A DNA stretch of 41,474 nt from Gammaproteobacteria bacterium (GTDB lineage: Bacteria > Pseudomonadota > Gammaproteobacteria > JAJDOJ01): the NCBI GenBank assembly GCA_027030565.1, contig JALVEU010000057.1:1-41474 (forward strand), given 5' to 3'. This document shows positions 3,453 to 40,236 of the stretch, piece after piece. Below the pieces are notes generated by a model that saw nothing but the letters and a program-made list of their open reading frames with translations, did not search any database and was not told the DNA's origin. Position 1 is the first letter of the stretch, and each line of letters opens with the position of its first letter. The translations under genes were made by a program, and so were the position numbers.

Positions 3453-4262
3453 GTGCCAGCGCCGAGAGCCCCCACTGCCGGTATGAACGCAAGAGACGAA
3501 CTGGACCCCGGCGACATCACCTCCGTGGCACACCTGCTCTCGGCCGCGATGGCCGCCGAACACGAGGCGGTCCGCCGGTACCGGGCCCTGGCGGAACAGA
3601 TACGCGAAGCGGGTAATCAAGAGGTCGCCGCCCTGTTCGAGCGACTGATGGAGGAGGAGCGCGGCCATGAGCAGCAGCTCGAACAATGGGCCGCCGAGGC
3701 GGGCGTCACGCCCGATACGGAGACGCGGGGCGTCCAGTGGCGTCACCCCGCGGTGCGCAGCGACCACGATGCCGAGGCGGTGGACCCGGCCCGCAGCACG
3801 CCTTACAAGGCGCTGTCCTTCGCGGTGCACAACGAGGAGCGCGCATTCCGTTTCTATGCCTATGTCGCGGCGTTCGGCCGGGACGCACGGCTACGCGACT
3901 ACGCCGAACGGCTGGCCCACGAGGAGCTGGCCCATGCAGCCCTGCTGCGCTCGATGCGCCGCAGGGCCTGGCGCAAGGAACGAGAGAGCGGCGATCGGCA
4001 GCCGGAGCTGGACGTCCGCCAGATCCGGACCGTGCAGGATCTGACCCACACCGCCGCGCGAATCGAAGAAAGGCTGGAGGTGCTGGAGAGGCGGGCCGGT
4101 GAGGACGACCAGGCCTTGGCGGCGCTACGCGCCGCCTGCGACGAAGCCTTCGACTTCTACGATGCGCTGGTGCAGCGGACCGACGACGAAGCAACGCTGC
4201 TGGAGGCCCAGCGTCTCGGCAAGGCCATGCTCACCCGGATCCGGAATCTGCCGCCTCCCTGA
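3453..4262 (+). CDS. Ferritin-like / rubrerythrin-family di-iron protein (two four-helix halves)
   Basis: 269-aa track ORF. Two ExxH-type motifs sit in helical contexts (LMEEERGHEQQL and LAHEELAHAALL), with AEHEAVRRY and NEERAFRFY partner helices. The start is uncertain: GTG 3453 or ATG 3483 (MNARDEL), neither with a strong SD. Confidence 0.6.
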   Translation: MPAPRAPTAGMNARDELDPGDITSVAHLLSAAMAAEHEAVRRYRALAEQIREAGNQEVAALFERLMEEERGHEQQLEQWAAEAGVTPDTETRGVQWRHPAVRSDHDAEAVDPARSTPYKALSFAVHNEERAFRFYAYVAAFGRDARLRDYAERLAHEELAHAALLRSMRRRAWRKERESGDRQPELDVRQIRTVQDLTHTAARIEERLEVLERRAGEDDQALAALRAACDEAFDFYDALVQRTDDEATLLEAQRLGKAMLTRIRNLPPP

Positions 4263-5745: not shown

Positions 5746-6150
5746 TGGCTGAGACTCCCCTGACACAGCTGGACGATCCCATGGTCGTTGGTTAGCGAAT
5801 TCCATGGGGCCTTGTATTGCTTGTTTGTGAAAACATCGATGCGGCGCCCGAACCGCCCCGCAGGTCCAGCAACCTAGCCGGGCGTTAGAAGGTCGGCAGA
5901 ACCACACCGTCCATCTCAAACGCCCGGCATTCTACGCCCAACCTGTGCTATTTTTGTAAAGTTTGGAGCGCATTTTGCTTGTTTCGAGGCGAAACAAAAG
6001 AAAAAATATTGCCTTTGTCACACAGACAGAGGCTGGCGCGATGCAGACAACGCATCGCGCATTGGCACCGAGAAAGAGGTTCGCTACGGATTAGGGCAAG
6101 TCCCGCGGGACAATGCCCGCGGTCGAGCAGCAAGGCCGCAGCAATGGGGC

Positions 6151-6705
6151 TCAGTGGGCCTCGAGCTTGCCCAACTCCTCGAGAATGGATACCACCAGCC
6201 GTTCGCCCTCGGCCCCCATGCCCGCGCACAGGGCCTCGGCGTCCCGCTCGCCGTTGACCAGCCGGCGCATGAGACCCCCCAAGCGCCCCATATCACCACC
6301 CACGCGGGTCATCTCCTCGGCCATGTGGGCAACGAGCTGCAGGGCCTGCACATCGCCCTTGCCGGCCGCATGGATCATGGCCGCCAGGCCTGGGGCGGCC
6401 AAGGACGCATCGCCCAGCTTCTCGGGGTCGGGCAGGGTCTGCGGATCGCGGATGCCCCGGAGTATGGCTTCCACGATGACGGCGTCCTCCTCGTCCAGTC
6501 CCTCGAACAGCCGCGCCGAGCGCTCACCGGCGAGAATCCTGCGGATCGCCCCCACCAAGGCCACCCAGCCGTTCTCCTCGGAGACCCTGAGCGCATGATC
6601 CAACTCCGGGCGCAACTCAGGATTCTGAACGGTGCGCACCACCGCATGGATCAGATTGGCATGGGCGAGCACGATCTGCTCCTGGGCGGGAGGGAGCCGG
6701 GTCAT
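6151..6705 (-). CDS. Hypothetical helical protein with an internal two-fold repeat
   Basis: 184-aa track ORF with good coding look. The repeat is ILAGERSARLFEGLDEEDAVIVEAIL versus LVNGERDAEALCAGMGAEGERLVVSILEEL. It lies 57 nt downstream of the glcG-like gene on the same strand. Confidence 0.55.
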   Translation of the reverse strand: MTRLPPAQEQIVLAHANLIHAVVRTVQNPELRPELDHALRVSEENGWVALVGAIRRILAGERSARLFEGLDEEDAVIVEAILRGIRDPQTLPDPEKLGDASLAAPGLAAMIHAAGKGDVQALQLVAHMAEEMTRVGGDMGRLGGLMRRLVNGERDAEALCAGMGAEGERLVVSILEELGKLEAH

Positions 6706-7378: not shown

Positions 7379-9016
7379 TCATGCGGTCACCCGCGCCACC
7401 ATGGCCTGCGCCTCCTCCTGGATGCGTCGTAGATGCTCCTCGCCGAGGAAACTCTCCGCATAGATCTTATAGACATCTTCGGTCCCCGAGGGGCGCACCG
7501 CGAACCAGCCATTGCGTGCCACCACCTTGAGCCCGCCGATGGGGGCATCGTTACCCGGCGCGCGGGTGAGGATGGCCTCGATGGGCTCGCCCGCCAGCGT
7601 GTCGGAGGCGATCTCCTCCGGGCGCAGTGCCTTGAGGCGTTCCTTGACCCGGGGTTCGGTCGGCACGTCGATGCGCGCATAGATCGGAGCGCCGTACTGC
7701 GCCTCCAGGTCGGCATAGTATGCCCCGGGATCGCGCCCGGCGCGGGCGGTGATCTCGGCGGCCAGTAACGCCAGAATGATCCCGTCCTTGTCCGTCGTCC
7801 ATACTGCCGCATTCCTGCGCAGGAAGGTGGCCCCGGCGCTCTCCTCGCCTCCGAAGACGATCTCACCGGCCATTAGGGGCTCCACGAACCACTTGAAGCC
7901 CACCGGCACCTCCACCACCCGCCGCCCCAGCCCGGCGGCCACCCGGTCGATCATGGAACTGCTCACCAGTGTCTTGCCGATGCCGGCCCCGGTGGGCCAC
8001 TGGGGCCGATTGCGCGCCAGGTAGTCGATGGCCACCGCCAGGTAGTGATTGGGGTTCATGAGGCCGCGACCGGGTGTGACGATGCCGTGGCGGTCGAAGT
8101 CCGTATCGTTGCCGAAGGCGATGTCGAAGCGGTCCTTGAGCGCCACCAGCCCCGCCATGGCATAGGGCGAGGAGCAGTCCATGCGGATCTTGCCGTCGTG
8201 ATCCAGGTGCATGAACGAAAAGGCCGGATCCGGATGGTGGTGGAAGACTTCCATGTCCAGACCGTAGCGCTTCGCGATGGCCGGCCAGTACGCCAACCCC
8301 GAGCCCCCCATGGCATCGGCGCCGATGCGGATGCCCGCTGCGGCGATGGCCTCCATATCGATCGCGTGCTGCAGGTCTTCCACGTAGGGCGTCACGTAGT
8401 CGTGGGCCTCGACGCCGGCGGCGGCCAGGGCCTCGTCCACCGACACACGCCGAACCGCGGTGAGGCCCCCTTCGAGAATCGCGTTGGCCCGCGCCTCCAC
8501 CCAGCCCGTGACGTCGGTGTCGGCAGGTCCCCCATGGGGCGGGTTGTATTTGAACCCGCCATCGCTGGGCGGATTGTGGGAAGGGGTGACGACGATGCCA
8601 TCGGCCTGCGCCCCTCCGGCTGCGTTGTGGGTGAGGATGGCATGGGAGATCACCGGGGTGGGCGTGAATCCGAGACCGCGTGCGTAACGCACGTTCACGC
8701 CATTGGCGGCCAGGACCTGGAGCGCCGTCAAATGCGCCGGCCAGGACAAGGCGTGGGTGTCCATGCCGATGAACAGGGGCCCCTCGATGCCCGCCTCGCG
8801 GCGATATTCCACCACTGCCTGGGTGACCGCCAGGATGTGATCCTCGTTGAAGTTGCGCGACAAGGCGCTGCCGCGATGCCCGGAGGTCCCGAACTGCACC
8901 CGTTGTCGGGGATCGTCTGGATCCGGGTGGCGCGTGTAATAGGCGCTGAGCAGGGCAGGAACATTGACGAGCAGATCGGGCGGCGCCGGCTTGCCGGCCA
9001 GGGGATGGACAGTCAT
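7379..9016 (-). CDS. pgm: Phosphoglucomutase, alpha-D-glucose-phosphate specific
   Basis: 545 aa. N-terminus is [19 protein letters not shown]. The active-site loop is [15 protein letters not shown], followed by [17 protein letters not shown] and GGEESAG motifs in the canonical order. Confidence 0.92.
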
Positions 9017-14171: not shown

Positions 14172-16232
14172 ATGGCCACCATCCACTTCCAAGGCCGGAC
14201 CTTCGACGCCCGCCCCGATCGCATCGATTTTCGCGACCGCCTGTACCGCCCTGCCCTCGAATCGCTGCCCCCGTGCTTTCCCGCTTCCCACGTGGTGGAG
14301 CAGTATCTGCCCCGGTACCAGAAAGCTCGCCTCGTGTTGGACCAGGGCAAAGAGGGGGCATGCACGGGATTCGGCCTCGCTGCCGTCATCAACTACCTGT
14401 ATTTCCGACGCGCCCTGGAAGAGGCCGAACGCAATGGGACCGAGCCGGCCCTGCCATCGAGGGTGAGCACCCGCATGCTCTACCACATGGCACGCCTGTA
14501 CGACGAATGGGAAGGTGAGGACTACGAGGGGTCCAGTTGCCGCGGGGCCATGAAAGGCTGGCGCAAACACGGTGTCTGCGCGGAGGACTTCTGGCCATAC
14601 CGAGAGAACGACAAGGTTCGCTTCATCAAGCCCCGAGACGGCTGGCAGCAGGATGCCGCACAACGTCCCCTGGGGGCGTATTACCGAATCGACAAGGACT
14701 CCATTGTGGATATGCAGGCGGCCCTGCTGGAAGTGGGCGCCATCTATGTCTCGGCCAGTGTCCATGAAGGATGGTACCTGGATTCCGCCACCGAGCTGCC
14801 CATCATCGAGCTCAGGGAAGAGCCCGTGGGCGGGCACGCCTTCGCGTTGGTGGGCTATACGGCGGACGGATTCATCGTCCAGAACTCCTGGGGCGGCGAC
14901 TGGGGCTTTCACGGGTTCGCCATCCTCCAATACCCGGACTGGGTGAAGAACGGCAACGATGCCTGGGTGGCGGTCATGGGTGCACCCATGCGGGTCCCGG
15001 CCCCGGCATCGGTCAGCTCGGTCTCCCTCCAGGGCCTGGCGGCAGGGGAGGAGCGCCGTGCACAAGGTGTAAGCCCGGCCCCAAGGGCCGGCTTCCAGTA
15101 CCGACACCCCGACGCGGCCCCCTGGTCTGAGGAGCGGGCCTACCGGCACACCTTGGTGATGGGCAACGATGGAAGGGTCCTGAATCGGCTCATCGATGTG
15201 GAAAATGCCGAAGCGGCGATCACAGAAGTCCTCCTGGAACGGCCCCAGGAATGGCTCGCCCGACGGCGCGGCCAGCGCAGGCTTGCGCTATACGCCCACG
15301 GTGGGCTGAATGACGAGGCCGCCTCAGTGGCCCGCATCCGCATCATGGCGCCCTACTATGAGGCCAACGGCATCTATCCCCTGTTCCTCACCTGGCGCAC
15401 CGGCTTTATGGAGAGCATCCAGGGCATCATCGAAGACGCCATCGACGACATCTTTGGCCGAGAGCGCTTCCGCGCGGCCGGCTGGGACTTGGGCAAGTTC
15501 GTGAAAGATGCCCGAGACCGAGCCATCGAGGCGGTGGCTGAACGCATCCTCGTCAAGCCCATATGGACGCAGATGAAACAAAACGCCGATGCGGCGGCGG
15601 ACCGGGGCAACGGCCTCTGGCACACGGCTCGGGCGCTGGAAATGCTCAAGGCGCGCTGGCCGGAACTCCGGGTGCACCTGGTGGGCCATTCGGCCGGATC
15701 GATCCTTCTGGGCCATCTCTTGGAACGGACCCTCCGGGCCGGGCTGCCCATAGACGGCGTCCATTTGTACGCGCCCGCCTGCACCATGGGATTCGCCAAC
15801 AGGACCTATGGGCGAGCCATGGATCGAGGCCTCCTGCGTCCCGAGGCCGTGACCATAGACAACCTCACCGATGAACGGGAGCGGGCCGACTCCGTGGGCC
15901 CCTACGGCAAGTCGCTCCTGTACCTGGTGAGCCGTGCCCTGGAGGTGGTGCACAAAATGCCGTTGCTGGGATTGGCGGCAGCCTGGAACGAGGAAGACCC
16001 TTCCGACCTATGGAACCGGGACAGACGCCGCGACATCGTCCGCTGGATGCGCAAGTGGGGAGACCGGGTCACCCTGACCCTTCAAGACAAAGAGATGGTC
16101 TTCGACGGGCAGACCTCGATCCCGGCTGCCCACGGGGCCTTCGACAACGATGTTGAAGTGGTGACCCGGACCCTGGAACGAATCCGGGGTGGGCCCCTGA
16201 AGGTCCCTGTAGAGAATCTGCATGGCTTCTGA
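14172..16232 (+). CDS. Two-domain hydrolase: N-terminal papain-like (C1) cysteine peptidase fused to a C-terminal alpha/beta-hydrolase (GxSxG) domain; no signal peptide
   Basis: 686 aa. The papain tetrad is in canonical spacing: Q and C in DQGKEGACTGFG, H in VGGHAFALVGY, N in IVQNSWGGDWG. In the C-terminal half, LALYAHGGLNDE is the strand before the oxyanion region and VHLVGHSAGSILLG is a nucleophile elbow. Confidence 0.8.
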   Translation: MATIHFQGRTFDARPDRIDFRDRLYRPALESLPPCFPASHVVEQYLPRYQKARLVLDQGKEGACTGFGLAAVINYLYFRRALEEAERNGTEPALPSRVSTRMLYHMARLYDEWEGEDYEGSSCRGAMKGWRKHGVCAEDFWPYRENDKVRFIKPRDGWQQDAAQRPLGAYYRIDKDSIVDMQAALLEVGAIYVSASVHEGWYLDSATELPIIELREEPVGGHAFALVGYTADGFIVQNSWGGDWGFHGFAILQYPDWVKNGNDAWVAVMGAPMRVPAPASVSSVSLQGLAAGEERRAQGVSPAPRAGFQYRHPDAAPWSEERAYRHTLVMGNDGRVLNRLIDVENAEAAITEVLLERPQEWLARRRGQRRLALYAHGGLNDEAASVARIRIMAPYYEANGIYPLFLTWRTGFMESIQGIIEDAIDDIFGRERFRAAGWDLGKFVKDARDRAIEAVAERILVKPIWTQMKQNADAAADRGNGLWHTARALEMLKARWPELRVHLVGHSAGSILLGHLLERTLRAGLPIDGVHLYAPACTMGFANRTYGRAMDRGLLRPEAVTIDNLTDERERADSVGPYGKSLLYLVSRALEVVHKMPLLGLAAAWNEEDPSDLWNRDRRRDIVRWMRKWGDRVTLTLQDKEMVFDGQTSIPAAHGAFDNDVEVVTRTLERIRGGPLKVPVENLHGF

Positions 16233-16275: not shown

Positions 16276-17055
16276 TCAGGCATGGGCCCCAATCACCTTA
16301 CCATCGATGAGCCAGCGTGCCATCAGCGCGGCGGCACGCTCGGGGACGTAGGCCTCGTCGATCCATTCCACCAGCCCGGCGCAGACCTCGGCGAAGGGCG
16401 CCCCCGCACGCATTCGGTCCAGCGCCCAGGCCTCGTCCACCTCCAGTGAGCGGAACCAGGTGCGCAGCTCGCGGCGCCAGATCACCCAGCCGACGGGATA
16501 GGGACCGCGCTCGGGGGCCACCGGCTCCCTTCCGTCGTCGATGGCCTGCCAGAGCTGCACCGTGTTCCATTGGAGATCCAGGCGCTGCACCGAGGGATGG
16601 AAGTCGAGTCGCAGCCCGGCCCAGGCCTGCGGTGGCAGGGCGGCCAGATCGGCCCGTGCCAGCGGTGCGGCATCGGCCGCGTCGAAGGCGTCGCGCAGCG
16701 CCCACTCGAAGGCGGCCATCTCGGCCAGGATCGGCTGCTCGCACCAGGGCGCACGTTCGGCCAGGTACGCAGCCAGGCGGTCGCCGAACCAGCGGATGGA
16801 GCGGTACGTGGAAGGGTGGGCCTCGATGTAGCTTCGCGCCAGGGCGTCGAAGCGGGCATCGCCGAGCAGCGTGTGTACCGCAGGATAACTGTCGGCCAGC
16901 GCCTCGGCGAGCCGCAGCCCATAGGCGTTGCGGTAGACCTCCAGCCGAGTCTGCAACGGCAGACGACCGTCGTCGGCCACGTCGGCGGCAAGCTCGGGAT
17001 CGCCCTGCAACAGCCAGCGCATGAACCGGCCCTGCAGTGCTGCGAGCTCAGACAT
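16276..17055 (-). CDS. DUF2063-family partner protein of MNIO maturases (BufC/HvfC type)
   Basis: Start at ATG 17055 (MSELAALQGRFMRWLLQG...), which overlaps the upstream stop in ATGTCTGA. LQTRLEVYRNAYGLRLAEAL...FDALARSYIEAHPS...IRWFG is the DUF2063 N-terminal signature. Confidence 0.8.
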   Translation of the reverse strand: MSELAALQGRFMRWLLQGDPELAADVADDGRLPLQTRLEVYRNAYGLRLAEALADSYPAVHTLLGDARFDALARSYIEAHPSTYRSIRWFGDRLAAYLAERAPWCEQPILAEMAAFEWALRDAFDAADAAPLARADLAALPPQAWAGLRLDFHPSVQRLDLQWNTVQLWQAIDDGREPVAPERGPYPVGWVIWRRELRTWFRSLEVDEAWALDRMRAGAPFAEVCAGLVEWIDEAYVPERAAALMARWLIDGKVIGAHA

Positions 17056-17893
17056 GGGCGGCGGCCTGGGCGCCTTCGGCGATCTCCCGCATCCGCTCCA
17101 CCTCCTCCATGAGCACCTCGAGCGGCGGGATGTCGGCATCGCGCTCGATCATGCACGAGACCGGCCCGAAACGCTGCACGGCCGCCTCGTAGAGGCGCCA
17201 CACCGGGTCGGGCACCGGGTGGTCGTGGGTGTCGATGACGTGATCCCCATAGTCCTGGTGGCCAGCCAGGTGGTGCTGTTGCACACGCTCGGCGGGCACG
17301 CCCGCCAGGTACTCCAGCGGATCGAAGCCGTGATTGCGGGCGCTCACGTAGATGTTGTTGATGTCGAGCAGGATCAGGCAGTCGGCCTCCTCGGCCACCG
17401 CGCCCAGGAATGCCCACTCGCTCATCTCCGAGCTGCGATAGCTCAGATACGAGGAGACGTTCTCGATCAGGATGCGCCGGCCCAGAAAGTCCTGCACCTG
17501 CCGGATGCGCCGCGCCACGTGCCGCACCGCCTCGCCGGTATACGGCAGTGGCAAGAGGTCGTGTGCATTGATGCCGCCGGCGCCGGTGAAGCAGAGATGG
17601 TCCGAGATCCACGCGGGCTCGATGCGCTCGACCAGCGCCTTGACCTGGCGCAGGTAGTCCCAGTCCAGTGGATCGGTGCCGCCCACCGAGAGCGACACCC
17701 CGTGGAGCACCACCGAATACCGGGCGCGCACCTGCTCGAGGAAGTGTAGGGGCTTGCCACCTGGGACCAGGTAATTCTCGGTGATGGCCTCGAACCAGTC
17801 GATCTGGGGAGGCTCATCCAGGATGGACTGGTAGTGCTCCTTGCGCAGGCCCAGGCCGATACCGAGATGGGGATAGGTGAGAGAAACCGTCAC
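17048..17893 (-). CDS. DUF692 / MNIO (multinuclear non-haem iron oxidative) peptide-modifying enzyme (BufB/HvfB/MbnB-like)
   Basis: The GTG at about 17893 gives VTVSLTYPHLGIGLGLRKEHY. WFEAITENY, VLHGVSLSVGG, ISDHLCFTG, ILIENVSSY and HLAGH.....IDTHDHPV form the TIM-barrel DUF692 motif series. The track ORF (to 18058) runs into the precursor gene and is trimmed. Confidence 0.88.
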   Translation of the reverse strand: MTVSLTYPHLGIGLGLRKEHYQSILDEPPQIDWFEAITENYLVPGGKPLHFLEQVRARYSVVLHGVSLSVGGTDPLDWDYLRQVKALVERIEPAWISDHLCFTGAGGINAHDLLPLPYTGEAVRHVARRIRQVQDFLGRRILIENVSSYLSYRSSEMSEWAFLGAVAEEADCLILLDINNIYVSARNHGFDPLEYLAGVPAERVQQHHLAGHQDYGDHVIDTHDHPVPDPVWRLYEAAVQRFGPVSCMIERDADIPPLEVLMEEVERMREIAEGAQAAAHV

Positions 17894-17936
17894 GGCGAGA
17901 AGACCCCCGGCCGGAGCCGGGGGATGTCGAAGGATC

Positions 17937-18206
17937 CTACTTGCCGTTCTGGGCGACCGTGCCCCCCTTTTCCTTGCACTCCTTCTCGCTGCTGGTGGGC
18001 AGCCAGCCCTGTCCCTTGCAGGCGTTCTGGCCCTTGCAGGCGTTCTTGGCCGTGGCACAGGCCGTCTGGCCCTTGCAGGAATTGATCCCGTAACAGTGCA
18101 CCTTGCCTTCGCTGGCAGCGGCCTGCTGGGGGACGGCGGTGCCGGCCAACATCAGTCCGGCGATGGCCGCCAGGGCAGCGGCGGTGGTCTTTTGTTGCGT
18201 CTTCAT
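17937..18206 (-). CDS. Cys-rich, Sec-signal-bearing RiPP precursor (DUF2282 / BufA-type metallophore precursor)
   Basis: This is the last 89 codons of the 482-aa track ORF. ATG 18206 follows GGAGGAG. The sequence is [31 protein letters not shown]|[58 protein letters not shown]. The core has six Cys and three CKGQ units. It lies immediately upstream of the DUF692 gene. Confidence 0.85.
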
Positions 18207-18388
18207 CGGATGGTTTCTCCTCCACGGTGGACGTTGGATCACCCGGCGCCCTGCAGGCGCCCGTGTCGATGCCCGGGCCTGCGCCTCGGGCACCAAAGAC
18301 CAAATACGCCGTTTTAAACCCCTTGGATGCACCCGGGCGGAAAAATTCCCGAGCCTCGCCACGCTCCGTTGGACGCGGCGGTCGCGGA

Positions 18389-20407
18389 TCACGCCAGCCC
18401 CAGTGCGCGTCCCCCCTGATAGACCAGAAGGCTCGCCAGCCACGCCGACGTCAGCCCCAGGGTCACGCTCAGCAGCGTGACCCGCCAGCTGCGTGACTCG
18501 GCACGGATGGCCGCCACCGTGGCCACGCACGGCGTGTACAGCAGCACGAAGACCATGAAGCTGAGCGCACCCAGGGGTGTCATGCCTGCGGCCAGCGCCT
18601 GGCCGAGCTCTGCAGTGCCATAGATGACCGCCAGGGCCCCGATGACGATCTCCTTGGCGATGAATCCGAACAGCAGGGCCAGGGTCTCCTGCCAGTGGAT
18701 GCCCAGGGGCGCGAACACCGGAGCCAGCAGGTGACCGAGCCGTCCGGCCCAGGTACCGGGGCCGGCAGGCGGCTCGCCCGGCGGCAGGTGGGTGAGCAGC
18801 CAGACGACGATCACGCCGGCCAGGATCAGCGTGGCGGCCCGGTACAGGAAGTCCTTGAGCTCCTGCCAGCTGCGCAACAGCACCGTCCCAGGTGTCGGCA
18901 GGCGATACGGGGGAATCTCCATGATGAAGGGCTCGGGACGGCCTGCCAGGCGCAGGGCGCGCAGCACCAGCCCGATGCCCACCACGGCTGCGAAGCTCGC
19001 CGCATACAGCCCCAGGATCACCCACGGCGCGGTACGCGCGTCGAAGAAGATCGCCGCCAGGAACACGAACACCTGCAGCCGCGCGCTGCACAGGGTGAAG
19101 GGGATGAGCAGCATGGTGACGATGCGGTTGTACGGGCTGGAGAGGATGCGCGTGCCCATCACCGCCGGCACGTTGCAGCCGAAGCCCAGCAACAGGTTGA
19201 TGAAGGCCTTGCCGTCCAGGCCCAGCCCGTGCATGAGCCGGTCCATCAGAAAGGCGGCACGCGCCATGTAGCCGCTGTCCTCGACGAGGGACATGAGGAC
19301 GAAGAAGAGCACGATGATGGGAAAGAACGACAACACCACGCCCACCCCCTGCCACAGCCCGTCGATCACGAAGCTCTGCAGCCACCCTGGCAGGGACTGG
19401 AAGAGGCCTTGGGCCTGGATCCAGGCGGCCCCGGCCTCGAAACCGCGGGCCAGCAGGTCCTGCAGCGGTGTGCCCAGGCCGTAGATGAGCTGGAACAATC
19501 CCGCCATGACGAGCAGGAAGGCGGGCAGCCCGAGCCAGCGGTGCAACAGGATGCGATCGATGGCCTCGGAGCGTGGATCCGGCCCCGGGGGATGTCGCCG
19601 GGTCACCTCAAGCGCCAGTCCGCGGGCCGCATTGAACCGGCACTGGGCGCAGGTGACCGCCAGCGGGGCGTGGGTGAGCGCCTCGATGCGCCGCCGCCAG
19701 TCGGCGGCACGCTGCGCGAGCTCCGGCGATTCCGGCCGGCGGGGATCCTCCAGCATGCGCATGGCGACGAACGCCGGATTGAGTCGCCGCACCACGCCGG
19801 ACCGCTCCAGGCGTCGCGTCAGGTCCCGTACCGCCTCCTCCAGCACCGGCGGGCAGGGCAGATGCGGGGGACGTGTGGTCTCGGGGTGCCGGATGACGCG
19901 GTACAGGGTCTCCAGCAGCTCCGGAATCCCCTCGCCGGTGCGTGCGGAAATGCCCACCACCGGCACGCCCAGGTGCTCGGCCAACGCCTCCAGGTCCAAC
20001 CTCAGTCCCTGGGCTCGGGCCTCGTCCATCATGTTGACCGCCACCACCATGGGCAGCCCGCTCATGGCCATCTGCAGGGTGAGCCCCAGACCCCGGTACA
20101 GGTTGCGGGCGTCGAGCAGGTTCAGCACCACGTCCGGCGGGTCCTCGAGGAAGTAACGTGCGACGATCCGTTCTTCCTGGGTCGCCGGACTCAGCGAATA
20201 GGCCCCGGGCAGGTCCACCAGCTCCACGTCGTACTCGCCCAGGGTGAAGCGTCCGGTCTTGCGCTCCACCGACACCCCAGGCCAGTTCCCCGTGCTCTGG
20301 TTCGAAGCGGTGAGCCGATTGAACAGCGTGGTCTTGCCCGTGTTGGGAATGGCGCTCAGCGCCACGGTCACCCGATCAGTGGGCATCGGCGGGCTCCACG
20401 AGGACAC
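18389..20407 (-). CDS. feoB: Ferrous iron transporter FeoB (G-domain plus permease)
   Basis: 672 aa. G1 motif is [15 protein letters not shown], followed by DLPG, NMMD and a polytopic C-terminal permease. The real start may be the ATG at 20386 ([10 protein letters not shown]). Confidence 0.9.
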
Positions 20408-20867
20408 GCCGCGCCTCGCCCCGGCCCAGCGTCAGCGGGTCGCCACCCGCCAGGACCATCCGTGGTGCAGACGAAGCGCCGTCGAGCAGCCGCAGCACGG
20501 TGCCCGGCTGCAGGCCGCGGGCCCCCATGCGGATCCGCAGGGCCCGGCCGCCGGCGAAGCCGCGCACCCGCAGCGGGCGATCGCCGAACAGACGGGCATG
20601 GGACAGCGGCAGCACCAGCGGCTCGCAGTCCAGGGCCGCCAGCTCGCCGGACCGCAATGCCAGTCGCTGGCCGGGGTCCACCGCCAGCTCCACGGTCCCG
20701 CCGAGGGGCGCCACCCGGGTGACTTCGAGCGCCATACCCGGCAGGATCCCCATGCGTGAGAGCCGCTCGGCCAAGGCCGCGTCCCGGCCCAAGCCGCGGA
20801 TGCGGCACCGGCAGCCCGGCACGGGCGGACAGGACAGACGCACCCGATCGCCCCGCTGCCGCCTCAC
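20376..20867 (-). CDS. feoA: FeoA-family protein made of two tandem FeoA (SH3-like) domains
   Basis: Repeat 1: CRCRIRGLGRDAALAERLSRMGILPGMALEVTRVAPLGGTVELAVDPGQRLALRSGELAAL. Repeat 2: LRVRGFAGGRALRIRMGARGLQPGTVLRLLD....[21 protein letters not shown]. The start is uncertain: GTG at 20867 or 20843. The track start at 21023 looks too far upstream. Confidence 0.6.
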   Translation of the reverse strand: MRRQRGDRVRLSCPPVPGCRCRIRGLGRDAALAERLSRMGILPGMALEVTRVAPLGGTVELAVDPGQRLALRSGELAALDCEPLVLPLSHARLFGDRPLRVRGFAGGRALRIRMGARGLQPGTVLRLLDGASSAPRMVLAGGDPLTLGRGEARRVLVEPADAH

Positions 20868-23536: not shown

Positions 23537-23738
23537 CCCCGTGGGCCGCATCGGCGCAGCCCATGAGGCAACTTCCATGCCGGGCCCGCCCGATGCGCTA
23601 CGCTTATCGGGCCTACAGCCTTGTGGACGCGGCTTCTCCGGCATCAACGGCCCAGCCCCGTAGGCCGCATAAGCGCAGCGCATGCGGCACCTTCCATACC
23701 GGGCCCGCCCGATACGCTGCGCTCATCGGGCCCACGGC
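23537..23738. repeat. Two approximately 119-bp-spaced BIME-like units, each a pair of inverted REP-like palindromes
   Basis: Unit 1 (23537-23620) and unit 2 (23656-23738) align almost base for base. The left arms are GTGGGCCGCATCGGCGCAGCCCATGAGGC and GTAGGCCGCATAAGCGCAGCGCATGCGGC. The right arms are GCCCGATGCGCTACGCTTATCGGGCCTAC and GCCCGATACGCTGCGCTCATCGGGCCCAC. The right arms are close to the reverse complement of the left arms and resemble the enterobacterial REP consensus (GCCxGATGCG...CTTATCxGGCCTAC). Confidence 0.7.
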
Positions 23739-23827
23739 TTTGCCCGATCCACCCCGCTGCCCCCTTCAGATCCCGGGGGCCCGAGAGTATCCTGTGCATA
23801 CCCCAGGCCCACCGCTGCGGAGGCCGC

Positions 23828-25120
23828 TTGCCCCACCGTTCAGCAGCCCGTTCGCGGGCCGTACCGGCTCCCACGGACGCCGCCGACAGCGATCTCCTCG
23901 CCCGCTACCGGACCGTGCGGACCTGCACCGAGACCCTCTGTGCGCCGCTGGCCATCGAGGATCATTGCATCCAGACCATGCCGGACGTGAGTCCGCCCAA
24001 GTGGCATCTGGCGCACACCACCTGGTTCTTCGAGCAGTTCGTGCTGGTGCCGTATCAGGCGGGGTATTCGATCTTCGATCCGGCCTTCGACCATCTCTTC
24101 AATTCCTACTACCAGACCCATGGCCTGCCCTTCCCGCGCCCACAGCGCGGCCTGCTGGCGCGTCCGACGGTGGAGACGATCCTGCGCTATCGGGCCCATG
24201 TGGACGCGGCCATGGAGGCGCTGCTGAGTGACGCCGCGCTGCCTGGAGACGCGGCGTTCCGCACGGTGCTCGGCTGCCACCACGAGCAGCAGCACCAGGA
24301 GCTCCTGCTCACCGACATCAAGCACATCTTCGCCTTCAACCCGCTGCGCCCCGCCTATGTGGAGGGGGCCCCACCGGCAACCACGCGGGTCCCGGAGCTG
24401 AGCTGGGTGCCCTTCCGGGGCGGGATCGGTGAGATCGGGCACGCGGGCGGCGGCTTCGCCTACGACAACGAGACGCCGCGCCACCGGGTGCTCGTGGGCG
24501 ACTACGCCCTGGCGCAGCGCCCCGTGACCAACGGCGAGTACCTGGCGTTCATGGAGGACGGCGGCTACGCGCGGCCCGAGCTCTGGCTCTCCGACGGCTG
24601 GGCGACGATCCAGCGCGAGGGCTGGCAGGCGCCGCTGTACTGGGAACGGCAGGGTGAGGCCTGGTACGCCATGACGCTCGCGGGCCTGCACCCGGTGGAC
24701 CCCGATGCGGCGGTGTGCCACGTGAGCTTCTACGAGGCCGACGCCTATGCCCGCTGGGCCGGCGCGCGGCTGCCCACCGAGGCGGAGTGGGAGCTCGCCG
24801 CCGTGCGCCAGCAGGTGGCCGGCCGGCTCGCCGAGGACCACGCGGTGGCACCGGGAGGCAGCGACGACCAGGCGCCGCTGGCCCAGCTCTACGGCGACGT
24901 CTGGGAGTGGACGGCGAGTCCCTACGTCCCCTACCCCGGCTTTCGACCCCTGGCCGGGACCCTGGGCGAGTACAATGGCAAGTTCATGAACAGCCAGATG
25001 GTGCTGCGTGGCGGGTCCATCGCCACCCCAGCCGATCACATCCGGCCCACCTATCGCAACTTCTTCTATCCGGGAGACCGCTGGCAGTTCTCCGGGATCC
25101 GCCTGGCGAAGGACCTGTGA
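23828..25120 (+). CDS. egtB: Ergothioneine biosynthesis sulfoxide synthase EgtB (DinB-like plus FGE-sulfatase fold)
   Basis: LLARYRTVRTCTETLCAPL...PPKWHLAHTTWFFEQF...HHEQQHQELLLTD is the DinB_2 part. YAL...PVTNGEYLAFMEDGGY...AYARWAGARLPTEAEWE...GDVWEWTASPY...RGGS is the FGE part. The start is proposed at the in-frame TTG 23828, 4 nt after GGAGG, giving about 430 aa. The track ORF start at 23621 lies inside the REP block. Confidence 0.85.
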   Translation: MPHRSAARSRAVPAPTDAADSDLLARYRTVRTCTETLCAPLAIEDHCIQTMPDVSPPKWHLAHTTWFFEQFVLVPYQAGYSIFDPAFDHLFNSYYQTHGLPFPRPQRGLLARPTVETILRYRAHVDAAMEALLSDAALPGDAAFRTVLGCHHEQQHQELLLTDIKHIFAFNPLRPAYVEGAPPATTRVPELSWVPFRGGIGEIGHAGGGFAYDNETPRHRVLVGDYALAQRPVTNGEYLAFMEDGGYARPELWLSDGWATIQREGWQAPLYWERQGEAWYAMTLAGLHPVDPDAAVCHVSFYEADAYARWAGARLPTEAEWELAAVRQQVAGRLAEDHAVAPGGSDDQAPLAQLYGDVWEWTASPYVPYPGFRPLAGTLGEYNGKFMNSQMVLRGGSIATPADHIRPTYRNFFYPGDRWQFSGIRLAKDL

Positions 25121-26088
25121 GCCGGCCCGCCGTCCGCTTCTACGACGAGCACCCGGACCTCGCAGACCTGCGCGAGGAGGTGATCCGGGGGCTCTCCCAG
25201 CGACCGAAGTCGATTCCCCCCAAGTTCTTCTACGACGCCCGGGGATCGACCCTGTTCGACGCCATCTGCGATCAGCCCGAGTACTACCCCACCCGCACGG
25301 AGATGGCGATCCTGGCGCGGCACGCCGCCGAGATCGCCGCGGCCATCGGCCCCGAGGCCTGGCTCGTGGAGCTCGGCTGCGGCGCCAGCCGCAAGATCCG
25401 GCTGCTCCTGGAGGCCCTGCGGCCCCACGCCTGGGTGGGCGTGGACATCTCCCGCGACTTCCTGCGCGGCGCGGCCCAGACCCTGGCTTGCGAATATCCC
25501 TGGCTCGAGGTGCACGCCGTGTGCACCGATTTCTCGGAGCACCTGCACCTACCTCTGGTGGAGGCGGGCGGGCGGCGACGCGTGGCGTTCTTTCCCGGCT
25601 CCAGCATCGGCAACTTCGATCCGCCGCAGGCCGAACGCTTCCTGCGTGGCGTGGCCGAGGCCCTGGGCCGGGGCGGCGCACTGCTGATCGGCGTGGACCT
25701 GCAGAAGGATCCAGCCGTGCTGGACGCCGCCTACAACGATGCGGCCGGCGTCACGGCCGACTTCAACCGCAACCTGCTGGTGCGCATCCGCGACGAGCTG
25801 GGCGCCGACGTGGATCCCGAGGCCTTCGCCCACCGCGCCTTCTACGACGCCTGGCGCGGACGCGTCGAGATGCACCTGGTCAGCCTGCGCGCCCAGACCG
25901 TGCGACTGGATGGGCATCGGTTCCCGTTCCAGGCCGGAGAAACACTGCACACCGAAAATTCCTACAAATACACCCTGGACGGCTTCGAGCACCTGGCCCG
26001 ACGTGCCGGTTATCGCAGCCAACGCGTGTGGACCGACGAACGCGGCTGGTTCAGCGTGCACCTGCTCCAAGTCGTAGGCGGCCAATAA
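25117..26088 (+). CDS. egtD: L-histidine N-alpha-methyltransferase EgtD
   Basis: The GTG start overlaps the egtB stop (GTGA). IPPKFFYDARGSTLFDAICDQPEYYPTRTE, ELGCGASRKIRLLL, FFPGSSIGNF, YNDAAGVTADFNRNLL and HTENSYKY are EgtD signatures. Confidence 0.88.
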   Translation: MSRPAVRFYDEHPDLADLREEVIRGLSQRPKSIPPKFFYDARGSTLFDAICDQPEYYPTRTEMAILARHAAEIAAAIGPEAWLVELGCGASRKIRLLLEALRPHAWVGVDISRDFLRGAAQTLACEYPWLEVHAVCTDFSEHLHLPLVEAGGRRRVAFFPGSSIGNFDPPQAERFLRGVAEALGRGGALLIGVDLQKDPAVLDAAYNDAAGVTADFNRNLLVRIRDELGADVDPEAFAHRAFYDAWRGRVEMHLVSLRAQTVRLDGHRFPFQAGETLHTENSYKYTLDGFEHLARRAGYRSQRVWTDERGWFSVHLLQVVGGQ

Positions 26089-26342: not shown

Positions 26343-28301
26343 TCAGGCCGGGGCGGAGGCGTCGGACAGCTCCGGCGTCAGGACCACGCGCGGAAAGGCC
26401 CCGATCACCTCGCGATAGACACGCGCCGGATCGTTCTCATAGCGCCTGGAGAAGTGGAAGGGCACGAGCCGGGCCACACCGGCGGCCGCAGCGATCTCGC
26501 CACAGGCCCGCGCCGTGAGATGGCCGGTGCGCCGGGCCTGGGCACGGTCGGCCCGCACGAAGGCGGCTTCACAGAACAGGGTGTGCGCCCGGTGGGCGAG
26601 ACGCTCCAGGCGCCCGCGGTTGTCCGGAGTGTCGGCCAGATCCGTGGCGTAGACCAGGCGTTTGCCGGGGCGGATCAGCACGAGATCCCGCGCCAGATCC
26701 CCCACCCGTTCCATGACGCCCGTGGGCAGGGTGATGCGCGCGCCGAGCGCATCGGCGTGGATGCGCCGCTTCAGCTCGCCCAGCCACGGCCCGGCTTCCA
26801 GGCCCCGGGCCGCGAGACGGTCCTTGCGCACGTTGATCTCGCGGGCGGGCTCGAGGGCGAAGGCCAGCACCGGCGTGTGATGATCGAGCAGGGCCGCACG
26901 CACCCGAAACCCCGGCTCGTCCAGCAGCACACCGGACGCATCGGGCGCGGTGCGCAGGGCCACGGGGCCGTCACGACCGGCCTGGAGCTGGAACACGTAG
27001 CGCAGGGCACCGTCCCACTCGGTCACGATAAAACGCGGCCCGCGGTCCCCGATCCGGTCCCAGAGGATGCCGCGCAGGAAGCCGGCGAGATGGTCGGCGA
27101 GCCCGGGTGGACCGTAGAGCCGGCAGGGCTCGGTGAGGCCGATGCGGGCGCGCAGGAGCCAGAGGAAGCCCGCAATGTGGTCGAAGTGGGCATGGGAGAC
27201 GAATACATCGGTGAGGCGGTGGGCCACCCGGGCGGGCAACCGCGCCCCCTCCCCCAGGTCGAAGAGCAGCCGACGCCCCTGGTGCACCAGGCGCAGGTGC
27301 AGGCAGGGATCACCGAACACGCCGTTGACCAGGTTCGCCTCTACGTGCCCCACTCGCAGGGCGAGAGGCCGCGGTGTTTCCACCTTCGCGGGCGATGCCA
27401 GTCCTTCGGGAAGCACGTCGATCGGCTCGGTGCAACCTTCGGCGAAGGGCTCCAGAGTGGTCAAGAAACCGCTCTCGTCGCGCGCCGCATCGCGCACCAG
27501 GAGGGTGTCGGCATCGGCGGGCAGGGATGGTGCACGCAGCTCCAGCCGGTCTCCTTCCACCGCCACTACCTCGCCCATCGCCCGCGTCCGGCCGCGCGAA
27601 AGGAGGGCCACCTGCCGGCCGGTCCAGGCCTCCGGCACGTCCAGCGGAGGCGGCGTCCCGGTGAGGTGCCAGCGCCCGAGCTCGATCCGCTGTGCCGTGG
27701 CACGCTCCAGGTAGCGGTCCCAGAGCATGGTGCGCTCACGCAGACGCTGGCGCAGACCCGGGCGCCGGGCACGCGGATCGCGCGGGATCCGAAGCACCGG
27801 GAGACCCAGCGCCGCGAGTTCCTGCTCCAGCGTCACCACACCGGCGGCTCCCCCCAGCACCAGGACCACCTCTGCCGAGACGGCCTCGGCCGTTGCCGTC
27901 AAGAGCTCGGCCGCCGCCACCCCGCGCACCACCCCCGGTGGATCGACCACGAGTGTTGCGGGCGGGATCGTTCGCAGCAGCCGTTCCATGGCCGCCACCA
28001 GCGGCAGGCGGAATCGCGCCGCATTCAGGGAACACAGGGCCTCCATCCCTTCCAGCCGCCATGCGCCGTGATCCCAGCGGCCCAGACACACTGCGCCGGG
28101 AACGCCGAAGGGCGGGGAGCCTGGATCTGCACTCAAGCAGTAGACGGCCTCATGCCCGTGCGACAACACGCCGCCCAGACGCTGGGCCAGGGTCGACTTG
28201 CCCGCCCCGGGCGGACCGGACAGGAGGATGCGCCGGCGGCCACGCAGGGCCTGCACCACGGCGTCCAAGGTGGCGGCGACCTCCGGCTTCATCGCCGCCA
28301 C
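26343..28301 (-). CDS. Fusion protein: N-terminal Clp1/Grc3-type P-loop polynucleotide-kinase-like domain plus C-terminal RNase Z-like metallo-beta-lactamase domain
   Basis: 652 aa. The Walker A is ILLSGPPGAGKSTLAQRL, followed by CLSADPGSPPFGVPGAV and LVVDPPGVVRG, which is the Clp1_P pattern (DxDxGQ-like, DTPG-like). The C-terminal part has FDLGEG...VFVSHAHFDHIAGF (HxHxDH)...LDHHTPVLAF...YATD...LFCEAAF...GHLTA...LVPFHFSRRY. Confidence 0.8.
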   Translation of the reverse strand: MAAMKPEVAATLDAVVQALRGRRRILLSGPPGAGKSTLAQRLGGVLSHGHEAVYCLSADPGSPPFGVPGAVCLGRWDHGAWRLEGMEALCSLNAARFRLPLVAAMERLLRTIPPATLVVDPPGVVRGVAAAELLTATAEAVSAEVVLVLGGAAGVVTLEQELAALGLPVLRIPRDPRARRPGLRQRLRERTMLWDRYLERATAQRIELGRWHLTGTPPPLDVPEAWTGRQVALLSRGRTRAMGEVVAVEGDRLELRAPSLPADADTLLVRDAARDESGFLTTLEPFAEGCTEPIDVLPEGLASPAKVETPRPLALRVGHVEANLVNGVFGDPCLHLRLVHQGRRLLFDLGEGARLPARVAHRLTDVFVSHAHFDHIAGFLWLLRARIGLTEPCRLYGPPGLADHLAGFLRGILWDRIGDRGPRFIVTEWDGALRYVFQLQAGRDGPVALRTAPDASGVLLDEPGFRVRAALLDHHTPVLAFALEPAREINVRKDRLAARGLEAGPWLGELKRRIHADALGARITLPTGVMERVGDLARDLVLIRPGKRLVYATDLADTPDNRGRLERLAHRAHTLFCEAAFVRADRAQARRTGHLTARACGEIAAAAGVARLVPFHFSRRYENDPARVYREVIGAFPRVVLTPELSDASAPA

Positions 28302-31418: not shown

Positions 31419-33173
31419 ATGTTCGGCCCCGGACAGAAGCGTGACACGGCCCGATCCCGTTCTCTACACCAAGCGGCCCTCGGGGTGGTGCTTGGTGTCC
31501 TCGCCGCAGCAGGCCTGCGCGTGACGTCTGCGGAACCGGCGCCTGCGGCATCCATGGCGGCGGTGGAGGGCCCCGCTTCCGAGCGGATCGAGCTGGGCAT
31601 CCGGGAATACGACGTGACGGCCAGAAAACGGCCCGTGGACAAATCGGTGACACGCCTGCTGGAGAAACCGGAGGACACCTCCACCACCGACCACAGCGAG
31701 CTGGACGAGCTGCAGGGCCCCTTCCACAGTGGCCCCGAGGTGACCAAGGCCTGCCTGGAGTGCCACAACAAGGCGGGGAAGCAGTTCCGAAAAAACATCC
31801 ACTGGACCTGGCGCTGGCACAACCCGCGCACCGGCCAGGAGTTGGGCAAGGCGCTCCTGGTCAACAATTTCTGCACCAACGCCGCCGGCAACGAAGGCAT
31901 GTGCGCCCAGTGTCACGCCGGCTACGGCATGACCGACGCCCGTACCTACGACTTCTCCAACGAGGAGAACATCGACTGTCTCGTCTGCCACGAATCCACG
32001 GGCACCTATTACAAACTGCCGCCCACGCGGGGCAACAAGGCCTGTGCGGTGATGTTCGAGGGCAAACCCCCCATCGATTGGACCCGGGTGGCGCAGAGTG
32101 TGACCCTGCCGGGACGAAACAACTGTGGGGCCTGCCACTTCTTCGGTGGCGGCGGGGACAACGTGAAGCACGGAGACCTCTCCTCGGTGCTCTTCAATCC
32201 ACCCAAGGACGTCGACGTCCACATGTCCCCACAGGGCGAGAACTTCGCCTGCATCATCTGCCATGTGGGCGAAGGCCACAAATGGGCCGGCAGCCGTTAC
32301 GCCCCCCTGGCCAAGGATCCCGGTGAGACCAAACCCGGCCTGCCGCGGCACACCGCCACCTGTGAGAGCTGTCATACCCACGAGCCTCATCCCCTGGGGC
32401 TCATGGGACTCAAGCTCAACGATCACACCGACCGCGTGGCCTGTCCCACCTGTCATGTCCCCGCCTTCGCCCGGGGAGGCGTCGCCACCAAGGTCCACTG
32501 GGACTGGCGCACGGCGGGCCGACTCCGAAACGGAGAGGGATACCGTGAAGAGGGCTACATCCAGGGCAACGGAGAGCCTCGCCACACCTACAAGTCCATC
32601 AAGGGCAGCTTCAAGTATGGCGAGAACCTGGTACCGGAATACCACTGGTTCAACGGCGTCGAGCGGTACATCACGGTGCACGACCGGTTCGATCCCTCCA
32701 AGCCCGTGGAGATCAACCACCTGGAAGGCGGCCCCGACGACCCGAACGCACGCATCTGGCCCTTCAAGCGCATGGTCACCATCCAGCCCTATGACAAGGG
32801 CAACAACACACTGGTCTACATGCACCTCTGGGGCGACGACGAAGACGCGTTCTGGGGGAACTACGACTTCGCCCGCGCCATCCGCCGCGGTATGGCGGAC
32901 TTCGGACTGCCCTACTCCGGCGAGTACGGATTCATCGAGACCTGGTCCTACTGGCCCATCGTCCACATGGTGGCGCCCAAGGAGGACGCCCTGGCCTGCC
33001 GAGACTGCCACGCCCGCCAGGGACGGCTGAAGGACCTGGCCGGTTTCTACATGCCCGGTCGGGACTACAACCCCTGGGTGGACCGGATCGGGATCGCCGT
33101 GGTGCTGGCGACGCTGCTCGGTGTACTGGGCCACGGCTTGCTGCGCGTGGTTCTGGCCGCTAGACGGAGGTGA
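31419..33173 (+). CDS. Octahaem c-type cytochrome of the tetrathionate-reductase (OTR) family, with N-terminal signal and C-terminal TM helix
   Basis: There are eight CxxCH motifs: CLECH, CAQCH, CLVCH, CGACH, CIICH, CESCH, CPTCH, CRDCH. The context matches OTR (HWTWRW, GGGGDNVKHGDL, HWDWRT). The C-terminus IGIAVVLATLLGVLGHGLLRVVL is hydrophobic. Confidence 0.88.
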   Translation: MFGPGQKRDTARSRSLHQAALGVVLGVLAAAGLRVTSAEPAPAASMAAVEGPASERIELGIREYDVTARKRPVDKSVTRLLEKPEDTSTTDHSELDELQGPFHSGPEVTKACLECHNKAGKQFRKNIHWTWRWHNPRTGQELGKALLVNNFCTNAAGNEGMCAQCHAGYGMTDARTYDFSNEENIDCLVCHESTGTYYKLPPTRGNKACAVMFEGKPPIDWTRVAQSVTLPGRNNCGACHFFGGGGDNVKHGDLSSVLFNPPKDVDVHMSPQGENFACIICHVGEGHKWAGSRYAPLAKDPGETKPGLPRHTATCESCHTHEPHPLGLMGLKLNDHTDRVACPTCHVPAFARGGVATKVHWDWRTAGRLRNGEGYREEGYIQGNGEPRHTYKSIKGSFKYGENLVPEYHWFNGVERYITVHDRFDPSKPVEINHLEGGPDDPNARIWPFKRMVTIQPYDKGNNTLVYMHLWGDDEDAFWGNYDFARAIRRGMADFGLPYSGEYGFIETWSYWPIVHMVAPKEDALACRDCHARQGRLKDLAGFYMPGRDYNPWVDRIGIAVVLATLLGVLGHGLLRVVLAARRR

Positions 33174-33178
33174 GTCGG

Positions 33179-37302: not shown

Positions 37303-37475
37303 CGAGTCGTCCTTCGCCCGCCTTGCGCGGGCCCCTTGGTGGGCGGCCCCGGGCCAGAGCCCCGGCCGCGTTTTTCTATGGTGGCCTCTTGCGTGCCGTT
37401 TGCCGCCCAACGGCCCCGTTCGGGTGCCTGAACGGCTTCAATTTGGATTTAGAATAGCATCCGCTGGGGGGGCTT

Positions 37476-40161: not shown

Positions 40162-40236
40162 GGGGAAATCGACCTCGCGTGAATCTGCCGATGCTATTCT
40201 AACCCGCCGTTTCCGACCCCGCTCCCGCCAACGGCC

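Follow-up and report, generated by a model that had tools for sequence, protein, structure and literature searches.

What do three tightly packed genes at positions 16276-18206 of a gammaproteobacterial contig encode, and does their position beside the ferrous-iron transport genes feoAB say anything about the metal involved? The genes lie on the minus strand of contig JALVEU010000057.1 (assembly GCA_027030565.1), whose 41,474 nucleotides (nt) were analyzed as a whole and are referred to below as the window. Analysis of the locus revealed that the triad is very probably a Buf2-type bufferin operon, bufA2-bufB-bufC (captophorin, Cys-Lys group in the newer nomenclature).

The bufA2 gene extends from an ATG at position 18206 to a TAG at position 17937 of the minus strand and encodes a protein of 89 amino acids (aa). 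It is separated by a spacer of 43 nt from the GTG start of bufB at position 17893, which encodes 281 aa. The third gene, bufC, extends from an ATG at position 17055 to a TGA at position 16276 and encodes 259 aa. Its start overlaps the bufB stop by 8 nt inside ATGTCTGA, and by this arrangement bufC is predicted to be translationally coupled to bufB. The features of the operon are as follows.

17937..18206, minus strand: bufA2, encoding the BufA2 precursor with a predicted Sec signal peptide and a six-Cys core.
18114..18206, minus strand: predicted signal peptide, residues 1 to 31, read from the sequence.
17940..18113, minus strand: predicted 58-aa core peptide, by analogy with Caulobacter vibrioides Buf2.
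17904..17923, minus strand: intercistronic GC hairpin, assigned from its fold and conservation.
17048..17893, minus strand: bufB, encoding a multinuclear nonheme iron oxidase (MNIO, formerly DUF692), assigned from PF05114 and NF050167.
16276..17055, minus strand: bufC, encoding a DUF2063 partner of the PME1 type, assigned from PF09836.
18207..18388, minus strand: feoB-bufA2 spacer of 182 nt, carrying the bufA2 Shine-Dalgarno sequence GGAGGAG.

A first-pass annotation of this DNA had described three packed minus-strand genes, the first of them encoding a secreted 89-aa precursor with six Cys residues. The gene arrangement was borne out, as the coordinates, the 43-nt spacer, and the overlap inside ATGTCTGA were all confirmed. 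The length of the precursor and its six Cys residues were likewise found in the sequence, and its secretion is read from the layout of the signal peptide. Identical proteins with matching gene calls for all three genes were present on four independent public contigs, which derive from metagenome assemblies (one of them labeled hydrothermal vent) and from the metagenome-assembled genome GCA_011332105.1. The GTG start of bufB was confirmed because an ATG is found at the aligned position in three close relatives (L085, L088, and L089; loci used for comparison are cited by L numbers where they have to be told apart). Base composition is uniform across 12-24 kb and matches that of the surrounding genome; therefore, there is no sign of a recent acquisition of the operon.

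Family membership of the precursor was clear from profile searches. NCBIfam model NF050166 (BufA2 family periplasmic bufferin-type metallophore, Buf_6/12Cys) matched the precursor with 92.1 bits (cutoff, 60; E = 1.8e-26), and residues 10-84 aligned with profile positions 2-78 of 79, which is nearly the full length. A database search with the precursor yielded 2061 homologous cluster representatives at E <= 1e-3, many of which are named BufA2 by NCBI and UniRef. The first-pass annotation had proposed a search against DUF2282; this search was performed, and Pfam DUF2282 (PF10048) did not match the precursor at E <= 0.01, the sole match being a subthreshold one to DUF7640. Membership in DUF2282 was therefore rejected in favor of BufA2, and a minority of the listed precursor homologs do carry a precomputed PF10048 match. 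A search of the precursor against the Protein Data Bank (PDB) gave chance matches only.

The six Cys residues of BufA2 are located at positions 38, 44, 50, 57, 63, and 77. Their layout, C-x5-CKG-x3-C-x6-CKG-x3-CKG-x11-C, is the same as that in 81 precursors from related loci, and the precursor fits the family pattern derived from these 81 sequences, V-H/K-C-x-G-x-N-x-CKG-x3-C-x-T-A-x-N-x-CKG-x-N-x-CKG-x-G-W/F ... C-x3-GG. The core contains three CKGQ motifs. The N-terminal region starts with MKTQQK, has K2 and K6 in the n-region and a 19-residue uncharged h-region, and ends in PQQAAA. With Ala at -3 and -1 and AAA preceding S32, signal peptidase I would be expected to cleave before S32. BufA2 has LAGT where lipoprotein relatives have LAGC; hence, it has no lipobox Cys.

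The second protein was matched by Pfam family PF05114 MbnB_TglH_ChrH (formerly DUF692) with 376 bits (E = 9e-113) and by NCBIfam model NF050167 MNIO_BufB (MNIO family bufferin maturase) with 381.2 bits (cutoff, 310; E = 2.3e-114). It remained below the cutoffs of the other NCBIfam models (HvfB, 284.9 versus 360 bits; MbnB, 56.1 versus 325 bits), and ApyH and ChrH also failed. The third protein was matched by Pfam DUF2063 (PF09836) over residues 7-98 with 79.8 bits (cutoff, 27.2; E = 1.9e-22), while the NCBIfam HvfC model aligned with residues 35-219 (E = 2.8e-9) at 37.2 bits, below its cutoff of 142. Thus, the searches that had been proposed for DUF692 and DUF2063 both returned the expected families.

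Comparison of BufB with solved MNIO structures showed that it aligns with 3BWW (a related MNIO; E = 2e-52), TglH (8HCI), and MbnB (7DZ9 and 7TCR). Residues H64, H99, E144, D177, N180, H208, D221, H223, and E250 of BufB occupy positions that we take to be the iron-ligand positions of MNIOs. These nine residues and D252 are invariant in 80/80 relatives, and most of the ten align to identical residues in the MbnB and TglH chains. D252 corresponds to the catalytic base FonB-Asp249 (PMC13097082). Residues 250-254 (window positions 17134-17142, minus strand) read ERDAD, with Ala253 and Asp254 following the catalytic Asp. MNIOs of the Cys-Lys group usually have ERDD, and the second Asp, at the site equivalent to FonB-Phe250, has been proposed to contact the substrate Lys (PMC13097082). 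This Asp is absent from BufB of the window, which has Ala253 at the site. Position 253 is Asp (ERDD) in 71 relatives, Ala in 6, and Gly in 3, and the relatives with Ala253, including several Reyranella-type loci, carry ordinary CK-type precursors. ERDD is a logo tendency in PMC13097082 and no strict family criterion.

The comparison set for these counts consisted of 80 loci from other species in which BufB is 54-84% identical to that of the window. A BufA2-like tblastn match was found in 68/80 loci, nearly always directly upstream of bufB, and BufC was encoded directly downstream of bufB in 78/80, so that the A-B-C gene order is conserved. BufC is 31-72% identical to the BufC proteins of related loci. 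The closest of the 80 loci, L005, encodes BufB and BufA2 proteins with 84% and 75% identity, respectively. The two closest precursor relatives in a large protein database (73% and 70% identity) have the same layout, with A, a spacer of 43-46 nt, B, and C, and the 8-nt overlap of B and C is kept on L085, L086, and L089. Precursor genes vary among the loci compared (L005 at 5870-6154 and 6224-6526, L010, L016, L024, L026, L069, L071, L078, and L083): tandem arrays of two or three BufA2 genes occur in several of them, and 12-Cys duplications and lipoproteins are common among the precursors.

The first-pass annotation had placed the triad in a "bufferin / HvfABC class." The assignment to a bufferin-class cluster for a ribosomally synthesized and posttranslationally modified peptide (RiPP) metallophore holds, whereas HvfABC is not a fitting label. 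The 89-aa precursor is free of EGKCG and KCG motifs, and membership in HvfABC was rejected on the basis of the missing EGKCG repeats and of scores below the cutoffs for both HvfB (284.9/360) and HvfC (37.2/142). Membership in the methanobactin system MbnABC was also rejected, given the MbnB score of 56.1 against a cutoff of 325 and a precursor that consists of a predicted Sec signal and a 58-aa core.

Characterized bufferins allow a product to be predicted. The Buf2 peptide of C. vibrioides has unmodified first and last Cys residues, which probably form a disulfide, while the four central Cys residues each lose 4.03 Da, for a net change of -18 Da (PMC11626156). The group formed has been assigned as 5-thiooxazole for the bufferin and EGKCG families; it was confirmed for Buf1 by selective labeling, and the HvfA product was reassigned to it (PMC13097082; bioRxiv 10.64898/2025.12.15.693703). 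Buf1 binds copper selectively at a ratio of 1:1, buf2ABC protects C. vibrioides against copper, and both buf1 and buf2 are induced by Cu and not by Fe, Zn, or Mn (PMC11626156). By analogy with these homologs, the expected product of the window locus would be a 58-aa periplasmic peptide with 5-thiooxazoles at C44, C50, C57, and C63 and a C38-C77 disulfide. Three of these four central Cys residues lie in CKGQ motifs. The computed monoisotopic mass of the 58-aa core is 5972.79 Da unmodified and would be 5954.65 Da for the predicted mature form (net change, -18.14 Da).

The pathway would then proceed as follows. BufA2 would be made with its Sec signal peptide, and before export, BufC would bind the precursor and present it to BufB. 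In four-electron oxidations with O2, the multi-iron enzyme BufB would convert C44, C50, C57, and C63 into 5-thiooxazoles. The Sec system would export the peptide, with signal peptidase I cutting after Ala31, and the outer pair C38 and C77 would form a disulfide. The folded periplasmic peptide may chelate Cu(I)/Cu(II) via thiooxazole N and S and thereby buffer excess copper. The modification sites, the mass of the product, its export, and its copper binding are all projected here from characterized homologs. The modification chemistry had been regarded as open in the first-pass annotation; for the class, it is now assigned as 5-thiooxazole, and for this copy, the assignment is made by analogy.

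BufB might instead install another modification, such as methanobactin-like oxazolone/thioamide pairs. This group was the original assignment for the product of the related HvfA (PMC11252979), and the uncommon ERDAD variant lies beside the catalytic Asp of BufB. However, the HvfA product has since been reassigned and the Buf1 group confirmed as 5-thiooxazole, the score of BufB passes the cutoff of the BufB model and falls far short of that for MbnB (56 versus 325 bits), and the Reyranella-type loci with normal CK precursors also carry Ala253. A different modification is thus quite improbable, and 5-thiooxazole formation is the preferred reading of the chemistry.

Several points weigh against the assignment to Buf2. 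This copy of the operon is known here from its sequence alone. BufB has ERDAD where 71/80 relatives have ERDD at the proposed Lys recognition site. As to an RRE-like (RiPP recognition element) C-terminal domain of BufC, searches of the PDB with the single sequence and with a profile of 34 BufC proteins gave no match, 3DEE included, and a single-sequence AlphaFold model of BufC had a pLDDT (predicted local distance difference test) score of 42 and was unusable. The assignment of the modified Cys residues rests on the family pattern and not on a direct alignment with C. vibrioides BufA2. Finally, neither a copper-responsive regulator nor a recognizable promoter was found for the window operon.

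The lack of a recognizable promoter also bears on the idea that the cluster is silent or decayed, in which case the peptide would either be secreted as a Cys-rich protein without modification or not be produced. No promoter was identified for bufA2, bufB starts with GTG, and its likely Shine-Dalgarno sequence lies inside a hairpin. On the other hand, all three open reading frames (ORFs) are intact, as are the catalytic residues and the Cys pattern, and identical proteins were found on the four independent assemblies. The hairpin and the arrangement of the start codon are conserved in close relatives, which argues for function rather than decay. Decay or silence is therefore extremely unlikely, and an intact Buf2 operon remains the reading favored here.

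The hairpin is located in the spacer between bufA2 and bufB at positions 17923..17904 (CCCCCGGC-UCCG-GCCGGGGG). It has a G+C stem of 8 bp and is followed by UCUUCUC, and its 66-nt context folds at -30.6 kcal/mol (z = -2.05). The GGGGG of its 3' arm lies where a Shine-Dalgarno sequence would be expected, 7-10 nt ahead of the bufB start codon, and is the probable bufB ribosome-binding site. The hairpin sequence is almost identical in L085 (about 8270-8295), L088 (about 6440-6465), and L089, and a single C-to-U change in the hairpin of these relatives keeps the pair as G-U. Comparison of the bufA2-bufB spacers of 64 related loci (among L005-L084) with shuffled sequences gave a median z of -3.0, with 72% of the spacers below -2. 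Most related loci have a strong GC stem-loop directly 3' of the bufA2 stop, often with a T-run after it.

By comparison with characterized homologs, the hairpin may act as a leaky terminator (attenuator), as a stabilizer of the transcript, or as a mask of the ribosome-binding site. In this way, more precursor than enzyme would probably be made. Such a logic of precursor-over-enzyme stoichiometry is known from other RiPP operons. No mention of a bufA2-bufB hairpin was found in the two bufferin papers searched.

The neighborhood of the operon was then considered with regard to metal specificity. The genes flanking the operon are listed here.

About 20376-20750, minus strand: feoA, upstream of bufA2.
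18389-20407, minus strand: feoB, upstream of bufA2.
14172-16232, plus strand: gene for a 686-aa protein with a Peptidase_C1 domain, downstream of and convergent with bufC.

A divergent marR gene is also located upstream of bufA2. Residues 119-252 of the 686-aa protein weakly match the papain-like Peptidase_C1 domain, and its long C-terminal region contains a GHSAG serine-hydrolase-like motif; for this C-terminal region, no family match was obtained in Pfam, NCBIfam, or PADLOC. A PADLOC scan of the neighboring large proteins revealed nothing meaningful.

The first-pass annotation had stressed that the cluster is sandwiched between feoAB/marR and an orphan hydrolase. This layout is present in the window, but it is not conserved: tblastn searches of the 80 related loci, L005 included, found no homolog of FeoA, FeoB, MarR, or the Peptidase_C1 protein at a distance of up to 8 kb from bufB. 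The closest precursor relatives are flanked by heterodisulfide-reductase-like and biotin genes or by a resistance-nodulation-division (RND) efflux system with PadR and a convergent DoxX gene. Both feoAB/marR and the Peptidase_C1 gene were therefore rejected as conserved context, and the adjacency of feoAB and bufA2BC is a lineage-specific juxtaposition. Because these flanks are not conserved, adjacency gives no evidence on metal specificity and no reason to doubt it.

These data bear directly on the possibility that bufA2BC is tied to ferrous-iron uptake, being cotranscribed with feoAB, with a peptide that handles iron, provides the MNIO with it, or has a protective role in Fe(II) uptake. It is compatible with such a link that feoA, feoB, bufA2, bufB, and bufC share the minus strand and that neither a terminator-like structure on this strand nor a recognizable promoter was seen in the 182 nt between feoB and bufA2. 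Against it stand the absence of FeoB, FeoA, MarR, and the Peptidase_C1 protein from the 8 kb around bufB in all of the related loci (present in 0/80), the 84%-identical L005 included; the hdr-like and biotin genes, or RND efflux genes with PadR, that flank the closest precursor relatives; and the induction of C. vibrioides buf1 and buf2 by Cu and not by Fe, Zn, or Mn, together with the copper selectivity of Buf1 (PMC11626156). A tie to iron uptake is accordingly considered very unlikely, and a copper-binding Buf2 product is the preferred reading. The combination of bufA2BC expression coupled to feoAB by read-through with a hairpin that masks the bufB ribosome-binding site and sets the precursor-to-enzyme ratio is, taken jointly, unlikely. 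If it were true, Fe(II) uptake in this vent lineage would be linked, in a Cu/Fe cross talk module, to production of a peptide that buffers copper and is matured by an iron-dependent enzyme, and the hairpin would represent a means of stoichiometry control not described before for Buf2 operons.

The absence of a DoxX-type gene and of an extracytoplasmic function (ECF) sigma/anti-sigma pair had been noted earlier as a departure from described loci. None of DoxX, ECF sigma, or NrsF turned up among the window ORFs scanned, so the observation itself stands, but it does not set the locus apart. The type locus buf2ABC of C. vibrioides (CCNA_02999-03001) "lacks a bufD1-like gene" (PMC11626156, Leprevost et al. 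2024), and its control is exerted in trans by SigF, the product of a gene adjoining buf1 (PMC11626156). In a survey of the family, sigma/anti-sigma genes were found in Buf1 biosynthetic gene clusters and not in those of Buf2 (PMC12452194), and DoxX is dispensable for the maturation and function of Buf1 (PMC11626156). A Pfam scan of 42 genes located directly 3' of bufC in related loci revealed no DoxX. In one close relative, a DoxX gene and bufC are convergent (L088, 8158-8622, minus strand; L089, 2792-3256, minus strand); hence, the association with DoxX is variable within Buf2. Sigma70_r4 matches at 37476-38111 of the window were rejected as an ECF sigma factor, since they are part of a LuxR-type response regulator.

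Control of the window operon was searched for in the sequence upstream of bufA2. A scan for sigma-70 promoters and terminators on the minus strand near bufA2 found none in the 182-nt feoB-bufA2 spacer, RNA structure in this spacer was not significant (z = +0.27), and footprinting of the bufA2 upstream region against L005, L085, and L088 revealed nothing conserved beyond the Shine-Dalgarno sequence. The SigF site of C. crescentus, GTAACC-N16-CGAA (PMC3511200), was not recognizable in the spacer. A relaxed SigF pattern, GTAACC-N16-CG, gave 385 matches in the window compared to 368 expected; because the matches occur at chance frequency, the pattern is uninformative.

Two upstream motifs emerged from the related loci. 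An ECF-like motif, TGAAAG-N16/17-GGTCTT, is located upstream of bufA2 in L039, L040, L043, L060-L062, L065, L067, L072, L008, and L005, the form in L005 (5814-5842) being GTAACC-N16-CGGTCTT, which may be compared with the SigF site. A direct repeat with 11-bp spacing, CGTGAT-N5-CGTGAT, precedes bufA2 in L037, L038, L041, L051, L068, L044, L047-L049, L059, and L077; we take this repeat to be typical of sites for OmpR/PhoB-type response regulators. Isolated GGTCTT and GTGATC hexamers occur in the window, where neither motif is complete. Since two distinct upstream motifs recur in separate lineages, the sequences suggest that the regulators to which Buf2 operons respond differ from taxon to taxon.

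Further genes of the window were recorded as observations in their own right. A partial nitrous-oxide reductase gene (nos_propeller_2) and a gene for a NosR-like membrane protein with FMN-binding and 4Fe-4S domains (3-998 and 1083-3287, minus strand) are found some 13 kb away from the bufferin operon, nitrous-oxide reductase being a copper enzyme; a rubrerythrin/ferritin-like gene (3453-4262, plus strand) adjoins them. At 23621-25120 (plus strand), a gene for a protein with DinB_2 and FGE-sulfatase domains adjoins one for a Methyltransf_33 (histidine-specific methyltransferase) protein (about 25117-26088, plus strand), which together present the EgtB/EgtD domain pair of ergothioneine biosynthesis. 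The gene at 26343-28301 (minus strand) encodes a 652-aa protein with an N-terminal CLP1-type P-loop domain and a C-terminal metallo-beta-lactamase fold. A multiheme cytochrome c with Cytochrome_cB and MtrC/MtrF-like domains is encoded at 31419-33835 (plus strand), and the gene for a membrane protein of the cytochrome b561 type comes next. Two PAS proteins, one of them a histidine kinase, and a LuxR-type response regulator are encoded at 36784-40296 (minus strand).

The locus is an ordinary example of a large, already described family, and the features that had been flagged as unusual are normal for Buf2. Thousands of members of the family are known, NCBI provides curated models for it, and its type locus has been characterized; standard annotation pipelines would name the window locus correctly. 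Its practical value is small: it offers a compact vent Buf2 cluster, a further pair of substrate and enzyme for studies of 5-thiooxazole formation, and the rarer ERDAD variant. The stem-loop between bufA2 and bufB and the lineage-specific upstream motifs may be more useful than the locus itself, as they bear on the regulation of Buf2, which is largely undescribed in the literature consulted.

Comparison with known systems places the window operon closest to C. vibrioides buf2ABC. Both are three-gene A-B-C operons without doxX and without an adjacent sigma/anti-sigma pair, and both combine a six-Cys precursor bearing a Sec signal (a predicted one in the window) with a BufB-type MNIO and a DUF2063 partner, with the same NCBIfam BufA2 and BufB families; the likeness to CCNA_03001 is one of family membership and not of direct sequence alignment. 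The two differ in that C. vibrioides is an alphaproteobacterial isolate, whereas the window host is an uncultured organism from hydrothermal-vent metagenomes, and in that SigF acts in trans in C. vibrioides. Furthermore, BufB of the window has ERDAD rather than the common ERDD.

With Buf1 (buf1ABCD), the locus shares the MNIO subfamily and the logic of a DUF2063 partner. The Buf1 peptide is exported by Sec, binds copper, and carries 5-thiooxazoles and an outer disulfide, as would be expected here. In contrast to Buf1, which has a DUF2282 precursor, the DoxX protein BufD, and SigF/NrsF nearby, the window precursor has no DUF2282 match, and there is no DoxX or ECF pair among the scanned ORFs. 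The window precursor has six conserved Cys residues, compared to four in Buf1.

The EGKCG (Lys-Cys) captophorins, i.e., the oxazolin HvfABC system of Haemophilus influenzae, gonophorin, and fontiphorin FonABC, consist of an MNIO, a DUF2063/RRE partner, and a signal-bearing Cys-rich precursor (PMC11252979, PMC13097082); the window has an MNIO, a DUF2063 partner, and a Cys-rich precursor with a predicted signal. Their product is a copper-binding thiooxazole peptide, like the one predicted here. Unlike in these systems, the Cys residues of the window precursor are followed by Lys (CKG) and not preceded by it, and the catalytic Asp of BufB is followed by Ala/Asp where the MNIOs of EGKCG captophorins have Phe.

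The likeness to methanobactin MbnABC is more general: there, too, an iron enzyme of the MNIO fold oxidizes Cys residues of a ribosomal peptide to give a copper chelator, and the iron-ligand positions align. In contrast to the window locus, methanobactin precursors have a leader peptide instead of the Sec signal predicted here, and the partner protein is MbnC and not a DUF2063 protein. Methanobactins contain oxazolone/thioamide groups and serve in the acquisition of copper rather than in its detoxification.

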